A stretch of DNA of 64,000 nucleotides from Escherichia coli (GTDB taxonomy: Bacteria; Pseudomonadota; Gammaproteobacteria; Enterobacterales; Enterobacteriaceae), in the NCBI RefSeq assembly GCF_030013205.1, contig NZ_CP122648.1. The stretch is one strand, 5' to 3'. Position numbers and translations under genes: made by a program. The notes under the pieces are model-generated. The model saw nothing but the letters and a program-made list of their open reading frames with translations. It ran no database searches and was not told where the DNA came from. Each line of letters starts with the position of its first letter. Position 1 is the stretch's first letter. Positions 10,149-50,493 of this stretch are shown here, piece after piece.

Positions 10149-12326
10149 ATGCTGCGATGGAAACGCTGTATTATGCTAACATTTATCTCTGGTGCTGCTT
10201 TCGCGGCACCAGAGATAAATGTTAAGCAAAACGAATCGTTACCTGATTTAGGTAGCCAGGCAGCACAGCAGGATGAACAAACCAACAAGGGTAAATCGCT
10301 GAAAGAGCGCGGAGCCGATTACGTCATCAACTCCGCCACGCAAGGGTTTGAAAACTTGACCCCTGAGGCGCTGGAATCTCAGGCCAGAAGCTATCTGCAA
10401 AGTCAAATCACCTCAACCGCACAATCTTATATTGAAGACACACTCTCTCCCTACGGTAAGGTCCGTTCGAACCTCTCCATTGGCCAGGACGGCGATCTGG
10501 ATGGTAGTTCCATCGATTATTTTGTTCCCTGGTACGATAATCAAACCACTGTTTATTTCAGTCAATTTTCTGCGCAACGAAAAGAAGATCGTACAATCGG
10601 GAATATTGGTCTTGGGGTAAGACATAATTTTGATGAATGGTTATTGGGCGGAAATATATTTTATGATTATGATTTTACCCGAGGACATCGCCGTTTAGGT
10701 TTAGGCGGCGAAGCGTGGACTGATTATTTAAAATTCTCTGGCAACTATTATCATCCGCTTTCTGACTGGAAAGACTCTGAAGATTTCGACTTTTATGAAG
10801 AACGCCCTGCGCGCGGCTGGGATATTCGTGCCGAAGCCTGGTTACCTTCTTATCCGCAACTGGGGGGCAAAGTTGTCTTCGAGCAATATTACGGCGATGA
10901 AGTCGCCCTTTTTGGTACGGATAATTTGGAGAAAGATCCCTACGCGGTAACACTTGGACTGAATTATCAACCGGTGCCATTACTAACCGTTGGGGCGGAC
11001 TATAAAGCGGGGACCGGAGATAACAGCGATGTCAGCATTAATGCCACTCTTAATTATCAGTTCGGCGTTCCGCTAAAAGATCAATTGGATAGCGATAAAG
11101 TGAAAGCGGCTCACTCGTTGATGGGCAGTCGTCATGATTTTGTTGAGCGTAATAACTTTATTGTTCTGGAATACAAAGAAAAAGATCCGCTTGATGTCAC
11201 CCTGTGGTTAAAAGCGGATGCCACCAACGAGCACCCTGAGTGCGTCATTAAGGACACTCCCGAAGCGGCCGTCGGGCTGGAAAAATGTAAGTGGACCATT
11301 AACGCGCTTATCAACCACCACTACAAAATTGTCGCTGCGTTATGGCAGGCGAAAAACAATGCTGCCCGCACGTTGGTTATGCCGGTTATCAAAGAGAATA
11401 CCCTGACAGAGGGTAACAATAACCACTGGAACCTGGTGCTGCCCGCCTGGCAGTACAGCTCTGACAAAGCCGAACAAGAAAAACTCAATACCTGGCGAGT
11501 ACGTCTGGCACTGGAAGATGAAAAGGGCAACCGACAGAACTCTGGCGTGGTGGAAATCACCGTTCAGCAGGACCGTAAAATAGAGTTGATTGTTAATAAC
11601 ATCGCGAACGTGCCGGAAGAGAACAACCACAGCCACGAAGCCAGCGCTCAGGCAGATGGCGTTGATGGTGTGGTGATGGATCTCGATGTAACCGACAGCT
11701 TTGGCGATAACACCGACCGCAATGGCGATGCGCTGCCGGAAGATAACCTCACGCCGCAGCTTTACGACGCGCAGGACAAACGAGTGACGTTAACCAACAA
11801 GCCTTGCTCGACCGACAACCCCTGCGTTTTTATCGCTAAACAAGATAAAGAAAAGGGCACTGTCACCCTCTCCAGTACCTTACCCGGCACCTATCGCTGG
11901 AAAGCAAAAGCTGCGCCCTACGACGACAGTAACTATGTGGATGTCACTTTCCTCGGGGCAGAAATTGGTGGGCTAAATGCATTTATCTATCGTGTGGGGG
12001 CGGCTAAACCCAGCAACCTGATAGGTAAAGATAAAGAACCGCTGCCGCTCAACAACACTTATCGATTTGTTTTGTGGCGTGACAGCAATAAAGACGGTGT
12101 CTTCCAGCAGGTCGAAAAACTGACTGACGAAGAGATGGCGCAGTACGACTACAAGTGGGAATTTACCGGCAAGAGCATCAATGGTGAAGTGGGTGCACAG
12201 GCGAACACTTCCAATGAGGACATTGTGATTCCGGCCACTAACCGCGAAGCAGCGCAAACCTATGGCGCACAAGCGGGAGATGGCTTGCAGGGATACGGTT
12301 TACGCGTGCTGTATACCAAAAAATAA
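10149..12326 (+). CDS. sinH: intimin/invasin-like inverse autotransporter (SinH-like)
   Basis: Start chosen at ATG 10149 (signal peptide MLRWKRCIMLTFISGAAFA). The N-terminal beta-barrel region (YFVPWYDN..., GLGVRHNF, GLNYQPVP) is typical of intimin/invasin, followed by Ig-like passenger domains. Position yfgJ-sinH-sinI-ratA-xseA matches my recollection of the Salmonella CS54 island. An AT-rich upstream region spans 9940-10148. Confidence 0.8.
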   Translation: MLRWKRCIMLTFISGAAFAAPEINVKQNESLPDLGSQAAQQDEQTNKGKSLKERGADYVINSATQGFENLTPEALESQARSYLQSQITSTAQSYIEDTLSPYGKVRSNLSIGQDGDLDGSSIDYFVPWYDNQTTVYFSQFSAQRKEDRTIGNIGLGVRHNFDEWLLGGNIFYDYDFTRGHRRLGLGGEAWTDYLKFSGNYYHPLSDWKDSEDFDFYEERPARGWDIRAEAWLPSYPQLGGKVVFEQYYGDEVALFGTDNLEKDPYAVTLGLNYQPVPLLTVGADYKAGTGDNSDVSINATLNYQFGVPLKDQLDSDKVKAAHSLMGSRHDFVERNNFIVLEYKEKDPLDVTLWLKADATNEHPECVIKDTPEAAVGLEKCKWTINALINHHYKIVAALWQAKNNAARTLVMPVIKENTLTEGNNNHWNLVLPAWQYSSDKAEQEKLNTWRVRLALEDEKGNRQNSGVVEITVQQDRKIELIVNNIANVPEENNHSHEASAQADGVDGVVMDLDVTDSFGDNTDRNGDALPEDNLTPQLYDAQDKRVTLTNKPCSTDNPCVFIAKQDKEKGTVTLSSTLPGTYRWKAKAAPYDDSNYVDVTFLGAEIGGLNAFIYRVGAAKPSNLIGKDKEPLPLNNTYRFVLWRDSNKDGVFQQVEKLTDEEMAQYDYKWEFTGKSINGEVGAQANTSNEDIVIPATNREAAQTYGAQAGDGLQGYGLRVLYTKK

Positions 12327-26367: not shown

Positions 26368-26381
26368 TACCTTAAAGGTAT
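26367..26381. promoter_or_regulatory. phage palindrome site A (TTACC-TTAAA-GGTAT), upstream of int
   Basis: One mismatch to TTACC-N5-GGTAA. The right half overlaps the -10-like TATACT, 42 nt before the int start. Confidence 0.55.
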
Positions 26382-31448: not shown

Positions 31449-31463
31449 TTACCGTTGAGGTAA
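31449..31463. promoter_or_regulatory. phage palindrome site B (TTACC-GTTGA-GGTAA), leftward early promoter
   Basis: Perfect half-sites, 19 nt upstream of the 31429 start. The -10-like AATTAT abuts it on the upstream side. Confidence 0.65.
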
Positions 31464-31510: not shown

Positions 31511-31525
31511 TTACCCGTTAGGTAA
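31511..31525. promoter_or_regulatory. phage palindrome site C (TTACC-CGTTA-GGTAA)
   Basis: Perfect half-sites, located between the repressor-gene terminator and site B. Confidence 0.6.
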
Positions 31526-32222: not shown

Positions 32223-32237
32223 TTACCCAACAGGTAA
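32223..32237. promoter_or_regulatory. phage palindrome site D (TTACC-CAACA-GGTAA)
   Basis: Perfect half-sites in the repressor/cro intergenic region. On the repressor strand GGTAATATT supplies the -10-like TAATAT. Confidence 0.65.
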
Positions 32238-32239
32238 AT

Positions 32240-32254
32240 GCACCTCATAGGTAA
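32240..32254. promoter_or_regulatory. phage palindrome site D' (GCACC-TCATA-GGTAA)
   Basis: Degenerate left half (2 mismatches), 2 nt from site D. Confidence 0.45.
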
Positions 32255-32285: not shown

Positions 32286-32321
32286 ATATTTATTATCTGA
32301 AATAAATATCAGGCAATAGCT

Positions 32322-32552
32322 ATGAGCGATAACGGACATTTCGATTTCAAAAAGCACTGGCTTGCACTTACTCCGGATGAGCGTGAAGCCTTCGCACAGG
32401 AAGCCGGAACGACGAGTCACTATATCCAGACTCACTTAACAGGTAAGCGCAAAATGCCAGGTAAAGTATTGATGAATGGGCTTTTTAAAGCCTGTAAAAC
32501 AAGACAATGGCTGCGCTCAAAAGCAGAACTGGCATACTTCTTCTACTCATGA
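32322..32552 (+). CDS. Cro-like small DNA-binding protein
   Basis: 76 aa, divergent from the repressor gene. HTH-like segment EAFAQEAGTTSHYIQTHLTGKRKM. Confidence 0.6.
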   Translation: MSDNGHFDFKKHWLALTPDEREAFAQEAGTTSHYIQTHLTGKRKMPGKVLMNGLFKACKTRQWLRSKAELAYFFYS

Positions 32553-32573
32553 TATCCAGCTACAACCCTCTGT

Positions 32574-32597
32574 AGACCGCCACCCGGCGGTCTTTTC
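32574..32597 (+). terminator. intrinsic terminator after the cro-like gene
   Basis: AGACCGCC-ACCC-GGCGGTCT followed by TTTTC. Confidence 0.75.
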
Positions 32598-32607
32598 ATA
32601 TCTATTC

Positions 32608-32622
32608 GTACCTCAAAGGTAA
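32608..32622. promoter_or_regulatory. phage palindrome site F (GTACC-TCAAA-GGTAA)
   Basis: One mismatch, 11 nt after the terminator and upstream of the replication-module genes. Confidence 0.55.
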
Positions 32623-32702
32623 TAAATAACCAAATCTGGTTGATCTTTTTTTTGTGTCAGCACAAAATGACCGTAATCCCAATACTAATAACAGGGCTTA
32701 CC

Positions 32703-32903
32703 ATGGAAATCATTACACGTATTGATGCCGCAAAGCGCGGACTTAAACGCTACTACACCGGAAAACCATGCAAGCACGGACATGACAGTGAACGCTGGGT
32801 TTACAACGGACACTGTGTTGAGTGCACCATGGAATCAAACCGTCGTATCAGGGCAGAGATTAAGCAGATCATGATTAATTCCTCCCCACAACATTCAAGC
32901 TGA
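32703..32903 (+). CDS. small Cys/His-rich (zinc-binding?) phage protein
   Basis: Start placed at ATG 32703 (MEIITRIDAAKRGLKRYYTGKPCKHGHDSERWVYNGHCVECT...), 66 aa. The upstream part of the track ORF looks non-coding. Confidence 0.55.
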   Translation: MEIITRIDAAKRGLKRYYTGKPCKHGHDSERWVYNGHCVECTMESNRRIRAEIKQIMINSSPQHSS

Positions 32904-32918
32904 TAGCGGAGATTAATC

Positions 32919-33752
32919 ATGAGCAGACATGCAACAGATTGGGCCTGGGAGACAGATCCAGGTAGCTCGTCATTAAAGCTCATACTGCTCTCGATGGCTG
33001 ACAGAGCCGATGAATATAACCTCTGCTACCCCAGCATAGAACGCCTCGTTAAAGACACTTGCCTGAATAAAAAAACCGTGCAGGCCGGGCTTATATCGCT
33101 CATGAAAATGGGGCTTATTTCAGATACCGGAGAGAGAAAGGGAGCGACGAAAAGAGTGCGGGTTTTCTCTCTTAATATAACCAAAAACGGGAACATTAAA
33201 GGCAACCGGGAAGGGGGTAATGGACCCGAAAACGGTAATGTTACCGAAAACGGTAATGTTACCGAAAACGGGAATATACCCAAAAACGGGATGTTGAATG
33301 ATCCCAAAAACGGGATGTTGAATGATCCCAAAAACGGGATCCAGAACCAGTCATATAACCAGTCATTTAACCAAGAGAGGGAGAGCAGGACAAAAAGCGG
33401 GGATTCTGTGCCTCATGACCCCGGCGCAAACAACGCCGTGATGAATAACTTTGTTCCTCCTGGTGGGCCAGGGCAATTAGGCAAATTTGTCATGCATGAA
33501 CAATGGCAGCCATCAGATGACTTTCTTCGGAAAAGCTCATTGCAGGGGATCTACCTGGACAGTCTGCCAACGGCACAGGAACTTGCAGAGTTCAGAATTT
33601 ACTGGATGGCTGAGGGTAAGGCATACCATCAGGCACAGTGGGAGCAGAAGCTGGCAAGGCGGCTGCAGATTAGCAGACAGAAGCAATCAACATTACCTGA
33701 TAACAACGTTCCGCACTGGAACAGCCCTGAAGCATGGGAGGATTTCTTGTGA
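32919..33752 (+). CDS. replication initiator (winged-HTH N-terminus, DnaT-like C-terminus; lambda O analogue)
   Basis: 277 aa. N-terminus LKLILLSMADRADEYNLCYPSIERLVKDTCLNKKTVQAGLISL. The C-terminus WQPSDDF...EFRIYWMAEGKAYHQAQWEQKLARRLQ is DnaT-domain like. The central Asn/Gly repeats are encoded by iterons. Followed by a lambda P-like gene. Confidence 0.75.
   Translation: MSRHATDWAWETDPGSSSLKLILLSMADRADEYNLCYPSIERLVKDTCLNKKTVQAGLISLMKMGLISDTGERKGATKRVRVFSLNITKNGNIKGNREGGNGPENGNVTENGNVTENGNIPKNGMLNDPKNGMLNDPKNGIQNQSYNQSFNQERESRTKSGDSVPHDPGANNAVMNNFVPPGGPGQLGKFVMHEQWQPSDDFLRKSSLQGIYLDSLPTAQELAEFRIYWMAEGKAYHQAQWEQKLARRLQISRQKQSTLPDNNVPHWNSPEAWEDFL
33181..33345 (+). repeat. iteron array (candidate origin of replication) inside the initiator gene
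   Basis: Seven AAAACGG cores at 33184, 33229, 33247, 33265, 33283, 33307 and 33331 (spacings 45, 18, 18, 18, 24, 24). Two 24-bp units CAAAAACGGGATGTTGAATGATCC are identical. Confidence 0.75.
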
Positions 33753-34534
33753 ACAACGTTTTTACCGCGATACAAAACCGTGACGGAGAAGCCCTTTCTC
33801 GCATGTCAGGTTATGAGCATCAGTACGTCAACAATGACAATGTGGTGAACATGTCAGCAGAGAGGCTTGTTGATGCCCTTTTTAAACAGCTGAAACAACT
33901 GTTTCCGGCGGCAGTGGTAACCAACCTGAAGACGCCAGAGCAGGAAGTTGCTGCAAAACAGCAGTGGATTGCTGCGTTTGCCGAAGGGGGGATCCGAACC
34001 CGTGAACAGGTTTCTGCTGGTATGCGCCACGCCCGCGCCAGTGAGTCTCCGTTCTGGCCGTCGCCAGGGCAATTCATCAAGTGGTGTAAAGACAGCAAGA
34101 TGGTTCTTGGCGTCACCATTGACGATGTGATGGCGGAGTTTCACCGGTACAGCAAGGAAAAAAGTTTATATCCTGGTGGTCCCGAAAGATTCCCGTGGCG
34201 ACATCCGGTTATGTACTGGGTCGTATGTGATACCCGCCGTGCAATGTATCAGCGCCAGCTTAGCGAGATTGAGGTTGAGAAACACGCGCGCAGGCTGCTC
34301 GATGATTGGGCGAAAAAGGTGGCTTCCGGACAGCAGATACCCGATCCGGTGATCAGCATACAGGCAAAGCCAGAGCCCATGAGTACGCCTCCGGACACAG
34401 GGAGAGACGTTTACCATCCACCAGGGCGAAGTTTCGGGTGTATGCCTAACGCCGCCACCCTGGGGGGAATAACACCGGCGCAGTGGCTGATAGAGGAATA
34501 CAGGCGGGGAAAGGCGGCAGGATTTATCAAGTAA
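33749..34534 (+). CDS. lambda P-like replicative helicase loader
   Basis: QWIAAFAEGGIRTREQVSAGMRHARASESPFWPSPGQFIKWC closely parallels lambda P as I recall it (RQWVLAFRENGITTMEQVNAGMRVARRQNRPFLPSPGQFVAWC). GTG 33749 is preferred because GGGAGG lies 7 nt upstream and it overlaps the upstream stop. ATG 33734 is the alternative. Confidence 0.85.
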   Translation: MNNVFTAIQNRDGEALSRMSGYEHQYVNNDNVVNMSAERLVDALFKQLKQLFPAAVVTNLKTPEQEVAAKQQWIAAFAEGGIRTREQVSAGMRHARASESPFWPSPGQFIKWCKDSKMVLGVTIDDVMAEFHRYSKEKSLYPGGPERFPWRHPVMYWVVCDTRRAMYQRQLSEIEVEKHARRLLDDWAKKVASGQQIPDPVISIQAKPEPMSTPPDTGRDVYHPPGRSFGCMPNAATLGGITPAQWLIEEYRRGKAAGFIK

Positions 34535-34571
34535 TACCAGCGCGATAGCGCATTTTTTTACGTCTCAATAA

Positions 34572-34586
34572 TTACCCATCGGGTAA
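34572..34586. promoter_or_regulatory. phage palindrome site G (TTACC-CATCG-GGTAA)
   Basis: Perfect half-sites. The -10-like AATAAT abuts the left half. Confidence 0.6.
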
Positions 34587-34633
34587 CAAAACATTCTAAA
34601 CTCTATTGATTTCGTGTCTTATGTGGTTTTTAA

Positions 34634-34648
34634 TTACCTTAGAGGTAA
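34634..34648. promoter_or_regulatory. phage palindrome site H (TTACC-TTAGA-GGTAA)
   Basis: Perfect half-sites, 3 nt before ATG 34652, so the site contains the Shine-Dalgarno AGAGG. The upstream candidate promoter is TTGATT-17-TTTAAT, whose -10 overlaps the left flank. Confidence 0.65.
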
Positions 34649-34651
34649 ATC

Positions 34652-34996
34652 ATGAGAAAACAGATACAGGCTCTTGGTCGACTCAAAACAGGCCAGATGA
34701 ACAAAACAGAATCTGCGTATTGCCAGCACCTTGAGCAGCGTAAACGTGCAGGGGAAATCGCCTGGTATCGATTCGAGGGTATCAAGCTGCGGTTAGCTGA
34801 CAACACGTTCTATACGCCCGATTTTGCTGTGATGCTCGCCACCGGCGAGATGGAACTGCACGAAGTGAAAGGTTTCTGGACCGACGACGCCAGGGTGAAA
34901 ACCAAAGTCGCCGCAGATCAGTATCCGTTCCGAATCATCGGGGTAACGGTTAAGCCAAAGAAAGCAGGTGGTGGCTGGAACATCGAAGAGTTCTGA
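34652..34996 (+). CDS. DUF1064-type phage nuclease-fold protein
   Basis: 114 aa. MNKTESAYCQHLEQRKRAGEI...YTPDF...HEVKG...DARVK pattern (PD-(D/E)XK-like D...E-V-K). Confidence 0.65.
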   Translation: MRKQIQALGRLKTGQMNKTESAYCQHLEQRKRAGEIAWYRFEGIKLRLADNTFYTPDFAVMLATGEMELHEVKGFWTDDARVKTKVAADQYPFRIIGVTVKPKKAGGGWNIEEF

Positions 34997-35755: not shown

Positions 35756-36317
35756 CTATCAGGCACTGCGTGACAAGGCAGAGAAAGCAACGTGTGGTGA
35801 GTGGTCGATCGAATATGGAGATGGCAGCTTTGATGGTGATGATGCACTAATTCATCGCGAGGCTGCTGGATATATTCCCATTTGCAGAATTGAAGGAGCG
35901 CATCCTGAAAGCGGTTTCGATGAAGATTTCCAAATGGAACAGCAGGCCAATGCTGAATTCATCGCTGCAGCCAATCCGGCTACCGTCTTGGCGCTGCTTG
36001 GCGAGCTGGAAGCAGCAAAAAAGCGCATAGCAGAACTGGAAGCCGAACTCGTAAGCCAAACTTACAAGTTGAACGAGCTATCGGGCAACTCTCCGGTAAC
36101 TCCGGATGGTTGGATAAGCTGTAGTGAGCGAATGCCGGATAGCAAAACAGCCGTTCTTGTTGCCAGGGAGTTTGACAGGAAAGGTGACTGGCGAATGAAA
36201 TGGGCGACTTACATCCCTGGGCATCCTGACGCTAATGATGGGTGGATAATTCCTGGTGCGTCGTGGATACCATCACACTGGATGCAACTACCAGAACCGC
36301 CGCAGGAGGCGAAATGA
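35742..36317 (+). CDS. Ead/Ea22-like protein with DUF551-like C-terminus
   Basis: 191 aa. N-terminus ALRDKAEKATCGEW, a coiled coil LLGELEAAKKRIAELEAEL, and a C-terminus W(I)SCSERMPD...SHWMQLPEPP typical of DUF551. Confidence 0.6.
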   Translation: MSEIDYQALRDKAEKATCGEWSIEYGDGSFDGDDALIHREAAGYIPICRIEGAHPESGFDEDFQMEQQANAEFIAAANPATVLALLGELEAAKKRIAELEAELVSQTYKLNELSGNSPVTPDGWISCSERMPDSKTAVLVAREFDRKGDWRMKWATYIPGHPDANDGWIIPGASWIPSHWMQLPEPPQEAK

Positions 36318-36407
36318 TGGACTATTCACAGTTAAGTGATTTTGAAATTAACAGAAGAGGCGAAATGATGGACTATTCACAGTTAAGTGATTTTGAAATT
36401 AACAGAA
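36306..36407 (+). repeat. perfect 51-bp tandem duplication (2 copies)
   Basis: GAGGCGAAATGATGGACTATTCACAGTTAAGTGATTTTGAAATTAACAGAA at 36306-36356 and 36357-36407. It duplicates the ribosome-binding site, the start codon and the first codons of the next gene, in frame. Confidence 0.95.
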
Positions 36408-36718
36408 TGGTAGGAGACATAATTTTTAAAGGCCTTTGGGCGTGTAAACCGGAAACATCAGGGAATAACACCAACAAATGGTATTACGGAAATACTGATA
36501 CAACTTTTGAGCCATTAAACCCTTTACCTGACTACTGCAATAATCCATCGGATGCATGGCCTATTATTGTTGATAATAAAATCAGTCTAACCTGCCACCA
36601 CTCTCGCGGTGAGTGGTCAGCAGTTTTTAATGCCGACAACATTTGCTTTCATGCGAATAATCCACTCCGAGCCGCCATGATTGTATTTCTCATGATGCAG
36701 GAAAATCAGAATGGCTAA
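36314..36718 (+). CDS. NinX/DUF2591-like phage protein
   Basis: MMDYSQLSDFEINR... N-terminus, present twice because of the duplication. An alternative start is 36365. ...NPSDAWPIIVDNKISL...NPLRAAMIVFLMMQE. Confidence 0.6.
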   Translation: MMDYSQLSDFEINRRGEMMDYSQLSDFEINRMVGDIIFKGLWACKPETSGNNTNKWYYGNTDTTFEPLNPLPDYCNNPSDAWPIIVDNKISLTCHHSRGEWSAVFNADNICFHANNPLRAAMIVFLMMQENQNG

Positions 36719-48225: not shown

Positions 48226-48240
48226 TTACCTTTAAGGTAA
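48226..48240. promoter_or_regulatory. phage palindrome site I (TTACC-TTTAA-GGTAA)
   Basis: Perfect half-sites, 27 nt upstream of the 48199 start. On the gene strand the -10-like TAATAT abuts the site (TAATATTACC). Confidence 0.65.
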
Positions 48241-49266: not shown

Positions 49267-49281
49267 TTACCGCAAAGGTAA
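49267..49281. promoter_or_regulatory. phage palindrome site J (TTACC-GCAAA-GGTAA)
   Basis: Perfect half-sites. On the minus strand the candidate promoter is TTGATT, 17-18 nt, TATCAT, with the -10 abutting the site (TATCATTACC). Confidence 0.6.
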
Positions 49282-49359: not shown

Positions 49360-49374
49360 TTACCTTTAAGGTAA
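49360..49374. promoter_or_regulatory. phage palindrome site K (TTACC-TTTAA-GGTAA)
   Basis: Perfect half-sites, 20 nt upstream of ATG 49395. Confidence 0.6.
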
Positions 49375-50478: not shown

Positions 50479-50493
50479 TTACCCGAAAGGTAA
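50479..50493. promoter_or_regulatory. phage palindrome site L (TTACC-CGAAA-GGTAA)
   Basis: Perfect half-sites in the divergent region between the 85-aa gene and the tailspike gene. GGTAATATC provides the -10-like TAATAT toward the tailspike. Confidence 0.6.

Follow-up and report, generated by a model that had tools for sequence, protein, structure and literature searches.

An array of seven short repeats inside a phage replication initiator gene is probably the initiator-binding part of a replication origin, namely, that of a phiV10-like temperate phage (Uetakevirus) residing as a prophage in an Escherichia coli chromosome. The DNA analyzed, here called the window, is a stretch of 64,000 nucleotides of E. 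coli contig NZ_CP122648.1 (NCBI RefSeq assembly GCF_030013205.1), and positions refer to it unless another locus is named. The initiator gene occupies 32919..33752, and the array lies in the part of the gene that encodes the linker between the N- and C-terminal domains of the protein. An initial annotation of this DNA had proposed that the repeats are iterons of a candidate origin, and this is the best explanation of the sequence evidence, in which the motif is maintained at the DNA level in three reading frames, the arms of the dyads appear to covary, the repeats are linked to the N-terminal domain, and the module has the polarity of ori-lambda. The element is of an ordinary kind, but it is without prior annotation for this phage group, and no origin is annotated at this position in the phage and E. 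coli records inspected. Literature searches by phage name, iteron sequence, and module type gave no open-access description of this origin, and the sequence query returned only the human papillomavirus E2 site.

Structure and copy number of the iteron array

The core AAAACGG starts on the + strand at 33184, 33229, 33247, 33265, 33283, 33307, and 33331, with spacings of 45, 18, 18, 18, 24, and 24 bp. These exact positions confirmed the seven cores with three 18-bp and two 24-bp periods given in the initial annotation. On both strands of the window, the core occurs 29 times compared to an expectation of 12.1 +/- 3.3, and seven of these occurrences are packed into 154 bp on one strand. In Tandem Repeats Finder, the 18-bp array spans 33216-33289 with 4.1 copies and 85% matches, and the 24-bp array spans 33279-33340 with 2.6 copies and 100% matches, so that the two complete units of the latter are identical, as had been claimed.

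Each unit is designed as a 16-bp dyad, NNNCC-RAAAAC-GGNNN, and two self-complementary versions of the arms were found, ATCCC-AAAAAC-GGGAT in iterons 6 and 7 and TTACC-GAAAAC-GGTAA in iteron 3. All seven iterons are on the + strand. Iteron 1 (TAACCAAAAACGGGAA, 33178..33193, dyad arms 3/5) is isolated, 45 bp ahead of iteron 2 (GACCCGAAAACGGTAA, 33223..33238, dyad arms 2/5). Iteron 3 (TTACCGAAAACGGTAA, 33241..33256), in the central 18-bp unit, has perfect 5-bp dyad arms, and its 18-bp unit is an additional copy compared to phiV10 and most relatives. It is followed by iteron 4 (TTACCGAAAACGGGAA, 33259..33274, dyad arms 4/5) and iteron 5 (TACCCAAAAACGGGAT, 33277..33292, dyad arms 3/5). Iterons 6 (33301..33316) and 7 (33325..33340) share the sequence ATCCCAAAAACGGGAT and lie in two separate but identical 24-bp units; the dyad arms of iteron 6 are perfect over 5 bp, and those of iteron 7 are perfect over 6 bp when the flanks are counted. 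Sequence comparison with relatives additionally showed a degenerate iteron-like site, ACAAAAAGCGGGGAT, at 33390..33404 on the + strand. This site reads AAAAAACGGGG in many relatives, where it counts as one more AAAACGG core, 63 bp past the array, and its significance is uncertain.

Arrays in 79 near-identical prophage copies contained between 4 and 9 cores. The commonest form has 6 cores with spacings of 45, 18, 18, 24, and 24 bp, and the window carries one 18-bp unit more. All changes in array length were whole-unit steps, and the homologous E. coli initiators range from 271 to 311 amino acids (aa) with 98 to 99% identity outside the array. Iteron number varies in a similar way among the relatives of lambda and lengthens the protein there as well, with 4 iterons in lambda and 6 iterons and 13 additional O residues in the Shiga toxin (Stx) phages (PMC7466680). 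These whole-unit differences in copy number could serve as a typing marker.

Two further observations concern the dyads themselves. The core of iteron 3, ACCGAAAACGGT (33241-33256), matches the papillomavirus E2 site ACCGN4CGGT, either by coincidence or because both have converged on a dyad whose spacer is an A-tract. On the minus strand at 33251-33330, the iteron dyads together with a T-run form three weak intrinsic-terminator-like hairpins. We judged these to be probable by-products of iteron structure, in which each dyad precedes the T-run of an A-tract, and not real terminators; such hairpins could hinder antisense transcription through the origin.

Conservation of the repeat motif across phages

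A first locus scan gave near-identical E. coli loci only and was used for the copy-number counts, not for deep comparison. A second scan of IMG/VR, led by the sequence of Edwardsiella phage GF-2, gave 80 diverse loci, which together with the earlier phages represent 21 lineages of the initiator N-terminal domain (N-domain). In Vibrio, Edwardsiella, Acinetobacter, and PPompW phages, the N-domain is 44 to 55% identical over the first ~90 residues, and the rest of the protein differs. All comparison phages sharing this domain carry a tandem array directly after it (H20, GF-2, AP22, Ab105-2phi, and the PPompW prophages). The array of Vibrio phage H20 is 5 x CCGAAAACGG, and that of phage GF-2 is 3 x CCCAAAATTGG.

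The motif CCNAAAWYKG was present in 2 to 7 copies at nucleotides (nt) 240 to 540 of the gene in 18 of the 21 N-domain lineages. The motif had been defined on some of the sequences in which it was then counted; its density at nt 240 to 540 was 12.2 per kb compared to 0.085 per kb elsewhere on both strands (~145-fold). The 122 distinct motif instances fall into three reading frames, with 80 in frame 1 (P/T-K/E-N-G), 26 in frame 2 (T/S/Y-Q-K-R), and 16 in frame 0 (P-K-T-E). Since the motif is kept in all three frames, selection acts on the DNA, and the array provides a clean case of a doubly constrained sequence, in which a protein-binding motif persists whichever frame is translated. Across the same instances, the frequency of complementary bases at arm positions -1/+1 and -3/+3 exceeded that in every one of 2,000 shuffles, a significance that is overstated because the shuffles ignore the kinship of the instances. 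A synonymous-site conservation test on regex-selected iterons was dropped as circular, and the reading-frame comparison took its place. GC skew was kept out of the evidence because transcription diverges at the immunity region and confounds it.

The motif follows the N-domain across different C-terminal partners, being found with a DnaT-like domain and P in the window, with a lambda-O C-terminus and P in GF-2, and with a DnaB helicase in AP22 and Ab105-2phi. The motif was absent from the initiators of SPN1S, Tyrion, and TL-2011b, which have the DnaT-like C-terminal domain in common and other N-domains. The Min27-type "O" has an N-domain with ~30% identity and different dyad iterons, 3 x GGGGCAGGAGCTGCCCC. 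In the phage Min27 "O" gene (1459-2127 of its locus), these GGGGCAGGAGCTGCCCC repeats are at a 21/24-bp spacing and encode a GGAGAA peptide. Judged by their sequences, the repeats thus seem to behave as binding sites that coevolve with the N-terminal DNA-binding domain, which is classical for lambdoid iterons. Hybrid-phage genetics by Furth and Dove is said to have shown that the N-terminus of lambda O sets ori specificity and that its C-terminus contacts P.

A different conserved stretch of DNA, AAAACCCCACACATA (peptide KTPHI), was observed just before the DnaT-like C-terminal domain in the SPN1S, TL-2011b, and PPompW initiators and is lacking in the window. A related sequence, AAAACCCCTCTCTCT, is located mid-gene in the Tyrion initiator. 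The AAAACCCCACACATA stretch may be another module-junction or origin element.

A second conserved repeat beside the array

Tandem Repeats Finder also detected a 12-bp repeat, AACCAGTCATAT (also written AACCAGTCATWT), at 33345-33373, which abuts the array and was not mentioned in the initial annotation. Together with the comparison of relatives, this defines a second conserved repeat, GAACCAGTCATAT / AACCAGTCATTT / AACCAAGAGAGG, at 33344..33380 on the + strand, with a 12-bp period and 41% GC. Its consensus is GAACCAGTCAT, or GAATCTMCCA in Acinetobacter-type lineages, present in 2 to 3 copies with a 12/13-nt period. The repeat was found in 20 of 23 lineage representatives, and in 18 of these it began 17 to 18 nt past the point where the last iteron core starts. 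In that zone, it had a density of 25.5 per kb compared to 0.36 per kb elsewhere. The pair at 33345/33357 is the sole such pair in the 64 kb of the window, where 0.015 would be expected. In several lineages, consecutive GAACCAGTCAT copies lie in different frames, the first being read as N-Q-S-L and the next as E-P-V-I, and this occurrence in two reading frames indicates that the element is conserved as DNA. Min27 has a AACCAGTCA copy behind its unrelated iterons, with partial copies alongside at a spacing other than that of the paired 12/13-nt repeats.

DNA opening potential was scored by nearest-neighbor stability in 40-mers, with the lambda locus as a control. In the control, the AT-rich tract directly 3' of the iterons was recovered as the least stable 40-mer of the locus (z = 3.4, 23% GC). 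The initial annotation had suggested looking for an adjacent AT-rich unwinding element, and in its lambda-like form no such element adjoins the array in the window. The 40-mer 3' of the array had a z of only 1.3 with 40% GC, and the conserved 12/13-mer is found in place of the tract.

The initiator of phage GF-2 (1501-2343 of its locus) connects the two arrangements, as it is a natural chimera in which the N-domain, the iterons, and the 12-mers are joined to the lambda right ori arm GAGAATTCTGRCGAATCCTCWGAC and a lambda-type O C-terminus. Compared to the lambda locus (520-760), the junction falls at the position of the lambda AT-rich tract. The array and 12-mers of GF-2 thus replace the lambda iterons and AT-rich tract directly to the left of lambda's conserved right ori arm, and the 12-mer zone, in the exact place of the tract, is the least stable segment of the GF-2 gene.

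We infer that the GAACCAGTCAT zone is an opening or helicase-loading zone. The DNA unwinding elements (DUEs) of oriC and of iteron plasmids have 13-mer repeats, and those of the plasmids are contacted by Rep proteins as single-stranded DNA (ssDNA). It is possible, although we hold this only tentatively, that the GAACCAGTCAT 12/13-mers are a distinct opening or loading element that is not AT rich, is read as DNA or possibly as ssDNA by a common factor, and is common to Vibrio, Acinetobacter, Edwardsiella, and Escherichia phage origins whatever their iteron type or C-terminal partner. If this is true, these origins would share a conserved "second half" that replaces the classical AT-rich DUE while being translated in two frames. 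As a candidate non-AT-rich unwinding or loading site, the 12/13-mer is the sole part of the module that possibly goes beyond a known kind.

The initiator protein and the helicase loader

The initiator gene (32919..33752, + strand) is an open reading frame (ORF) of 277 aa whose product matches Pfam HTH_36 and DnaT domains, and its best PHROG is 1032, "replication initiation protein" (E value of 1e-109). The N-terminal helix-turn-helix (HTH) DNA-binding domain comprises aa 1 to 87 (32919..33179, + strand; HTH_36 at aa 18 to 67, E value of 1.9e-10) and is the likely reader of the iterons. The C-terminal DnaT-like ssDNA-binding domain comprises aa 187 to 271 (33477..33731, + strand; Pfam PF17948 at aa 190 to 258, E value of 1.2e-15), and the C-terminal 85 residues match the solved DnaT chains 9zbt, 6aep, and 4ou6 in the PDB with E values of ~1e-20. 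The residues encoded by the repeats, aa 88 to 140, sit between these two domains, and the translation of the ORF contains the NG-rich repeat-encoded peptide ENGNVTENGNVTENGNIPKNGMLNDPKNGMLNDPKNG. Translation and Pfam therefore agree with the previous description of the repeats as encoding an NG-rich linker between the HTH and DnaT-like domains.

The protein had been called an O-like initiator, a label that fits by function but not by family. The initiator gave no match to PF04492 (Phage_rep_O) at an E value of ≤0.01, and it did not match TIGR01610 (phage_O_Nterm), whereas lambda O did (5e-39). An hhalign comparison of the N-domain profile with lambda O aa 1 to 162 gave a probability of 3%, which is not significant and does not demonstrate homology to lambda O. 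Membership in the lambda O family by sequence was therefore rejected, as the N-domain misses both models and the C-terminus is DnaT-like. The Pfam search gave no match to plasmid Rep families.

Identity as a full-length DnaT was also rejected. The score with NCBIfam NF002770 was 85 bits compared to a cutoff of 201 bits, and the match is limited to aa 187 to 270, corresponding to model positions 86 to 169, i.e., the C-terminal half only. The initiator shares with E. coli DnaT (primosomal protein I, which acts in replication restart) a homologous C-terminal ssDNA-binding domain. It differs in its N-terminal half, which is a predicted sequence-specific HTH domain followed by the iteron-encoding linker. 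Relatives of the initiator in E. coli genomes are labeled only "DnaT-like ssDNA-binding domain-containing protein." The names "primosomal protein" and "DnaT-like" arise from the homology of the last 85 residues to the ssDNA-binding domain of DnaT, and they are wrong, vague, or misleading for what is a phage origin initiator and not a restart factor. The array offers a concrete, testable candidate origin for phiV10-like prophages and for a wide initiator family that is now mislabeled "DnaT/primosomal protein."

A lambda P-like helicase loader gene follows directly (33749..34534, + strand), as the initial annotation had stated. Its product matches Pfam Phage_lambda_P (PF06992, E value of 1.5e-56) and PHROG 109, "P-like helicase loader" (E value of 6e-91). 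The GTG start at 33749, which was chosen after the PhiV10p44 annotation, overlaps the initiator stop codon (GTGA) and is preceded by a GGAGGA Shine-Dalgarno sequence. This overlap suggests translational coupling of the two genes.

Comparison with known origins and a proposed mechanism

The arrangement resembles ori-lambda in gene O, as in lambda and the Stx phages 933W and P27. In both, the known or probable origin is internal to the initiator gene, at its middle, where the gene encodes the linker that joins an N-terminal DNA-binding domain to a C-terminal one, and a P-type loader gene comes immediately after the initiator. The order of N-domain, iterons, candidate unwinding zone, C-terminal domain, and P gene is the same. 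Both also have several dyad iterons with a central A-tract (TCCCTCAAAACGAGGGA in lambda compared to TCCCAAAAACGGGA here) and TCCC/GGGA arms around an A-tract that ends in AAAAC. The annotated lambda iterons (NC_001416) are ATCCCTCAAAACGAGGGA, ATCCCCTAAAACGAGGGA, ATCCCTCAAATTGGGGGA, and ATCCCTCAAAACAGGGGG. In contrast to lambda, the window has an N-domain that is not detectably of the lambda O family and a C-terminal domain that is DnaT-like. The iterons of the window are 16 bp long and 18 or 24 bp apart, compared to ~18 to 19 bp in lambda, and the conserved 12/13-mer takes the place of a strongly AT-rich tract.

Iteron plasmid origins (RK2 oriV/TrfA, pPS10, R6K, and F) are similar in that direct repeats for a winged-helix initiator stand beside a short-repeat opening zone, and the 12/13-mers of the window are reminiscent of the 13-mers of DUEs. 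However, the plasmid origins are usually intergenic and AT rich, whereas the origin in the window would be wholly within coding sequence, with a 12-mer zone of 41% GC.

By analogy with these systems, upon induction the initiator would be expressed from the early rightward operon, and dimers of its N-terminal HTH domain would bind the 16-bp dyad iterons and form an O-some-like complex on the A-tract-containing DNA. The neighboring GAACCAGTCAT 12-mer zone would then open, and the DnaT-like ssDNA-binding C-terminal domain and the P-like protein would bring the host DnaB helicase to the opened DNA. In this scheme, the binding of the N-domain to the iterons, the unwinding of the 12-mers, the loading of the helicase, and the function as an origin are all predicted from sequence and analogy. 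The general picture of lambdoid replication is unchanged by it.

Evidence against an origin and alternative explanations

Several points weigh against the array being part of an origin. A lambda-like AT-rich tract does not adjoin it, and the least stable DNA near the module is intergenic, at 32590-32629 (z = 2.4) and 34583-34666 (z = 2.2 to 2.5). The dyads are perfect in only three of the seven units and 4/5 in one, and they are poor (2-3/5) in the other three. The derivation of the motif from some of the sequences in which it was counted and the neglect of kinship in the covariation shuffles reduce the weight of these two results. The AlphaFold2 model of the initiator, made from an alignment of near-identical homologues, had a mean predicted local distance difference test score (pLDDT) of 32.8 and was unusable, leaving the N-domain fold without a model. 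Finally, no experiments on this or any homologous module were found in the literature.

The alternative that survives best is that the iterons are true initiator sites with a mainly regulatory role (autoregulation, titration/handcuffing, or incompatibility) and that the DNA opens elsewhere, e.g., in flanking intergenic AT-rich DNA. The least stable duplexes at 32590-32629 and 34583-34666 are where such opening would be expected, away from the array. The repeats of iteron plasmids have a double role of this kind, acting in copy control as well as in initiation. However, in 20 of 23 lineages, the 12/13-mers keep a nearly constant distance to the last iteron, and they stand in for the lambda unwinding tract in the GF-2 chimera. 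The flanking intergenic DNA, moreover, is not conserved with the N-domain, and the neighbors of the modules differ by lineage. We give a mainly regulatory role a small chance of being correct.

A second alternative is that the repeats have no role as DNA and merely encode an NG-rich protein linker of low complexity that is prone to slippage. The units preserve the frame, near-identical prophages differ freely in the number of whole units, and the linker is without regular structure in the low-confidence structure model, all of which would be expected of such a linker. Against this, phages of different hosts have the same 10-nt motif in three frames, where it encodes the unrelated peptides PKNG, TQKR, and PKTE. 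The symmetry of the dyads and the compensating changes in their arms lack a rationale at the protein level, and the motif is ~145-fold enriched at one position and on one strand. The peptide-linker explanation is thus largely refuted and highly improbable.

Also improbable is that a host factor or another phage regulator, and not the initiator N-domain, binds the repeats, for although the 12-mer element is kept despite the different iterons of Min27 and so is possibly read by something common, the iteron sequence tracks the N-domain type in Vibrio, Acinetobacter, and Escherichia and shifts when the N-domain diverges, and the iterons are unlike the DnaA box TTATCCACA or the IHF consensus when compared by eye with the established consensus sequences.

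Phage setting, distribution, and other features of the window

The 2-kb module is 96.5 to 97.9% identical to those of phiV10 and related Uetakevirus temperate E. coli podophages, and the initiator protein is ~97% identical to PhiV10p43. The initiator gene was present in 423 of 5,426 complete E. coli genomes (~8%). It is chromosomal in nearly all carriers and therefore prophage borne, and several swine enterotoxigenic E. coli (ETEC) strains have an identical gene. The module was also observed at 96 to 98% identity near the record end of BP9 (138 kb, Vequintavirus) and PH444 (115 kb, UNVERIFIED_ORG). The presence of a temperate-phage immunity and replication module in these records suggests assembly chimeras or contamination with prophage DNA, not true gene content.

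On the 5' side of the initiator gene are a minus-strand double-HTH repressor, a small regulator-like gene, a terminator at 32574-32593, and a small conserved ORF. A search of Rfam with 32300-34800 matched no known RNA family at an E value of ≤1.

The palindrome TACCTNNNAGGTA, allowing ≤1 mismatch, has 12 copies in the window compared to 0.67 expected. These are located at 32609-32621, 34635-34647, 32224-32236, 32241-32253, 31450-31462, 31512-31524, 26368-26380, 48227-48239, 49268-49280, 49361-49373, 50480-50492, and 12015-12027. Two copies are in the divergent repressor/cro-like intergenic region, two are just past the repressor gene, and two flank the O-P module. The palindrome resembles an operator for a phage regulator, in which case the replication genes would be under its direct control. 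Further downstream, the ORF at 36242-36718 contains a perfect 51-bp tandem duplication at 36306-36407, in which the peptide GEMMDYSQLSDFEINR is doubled.

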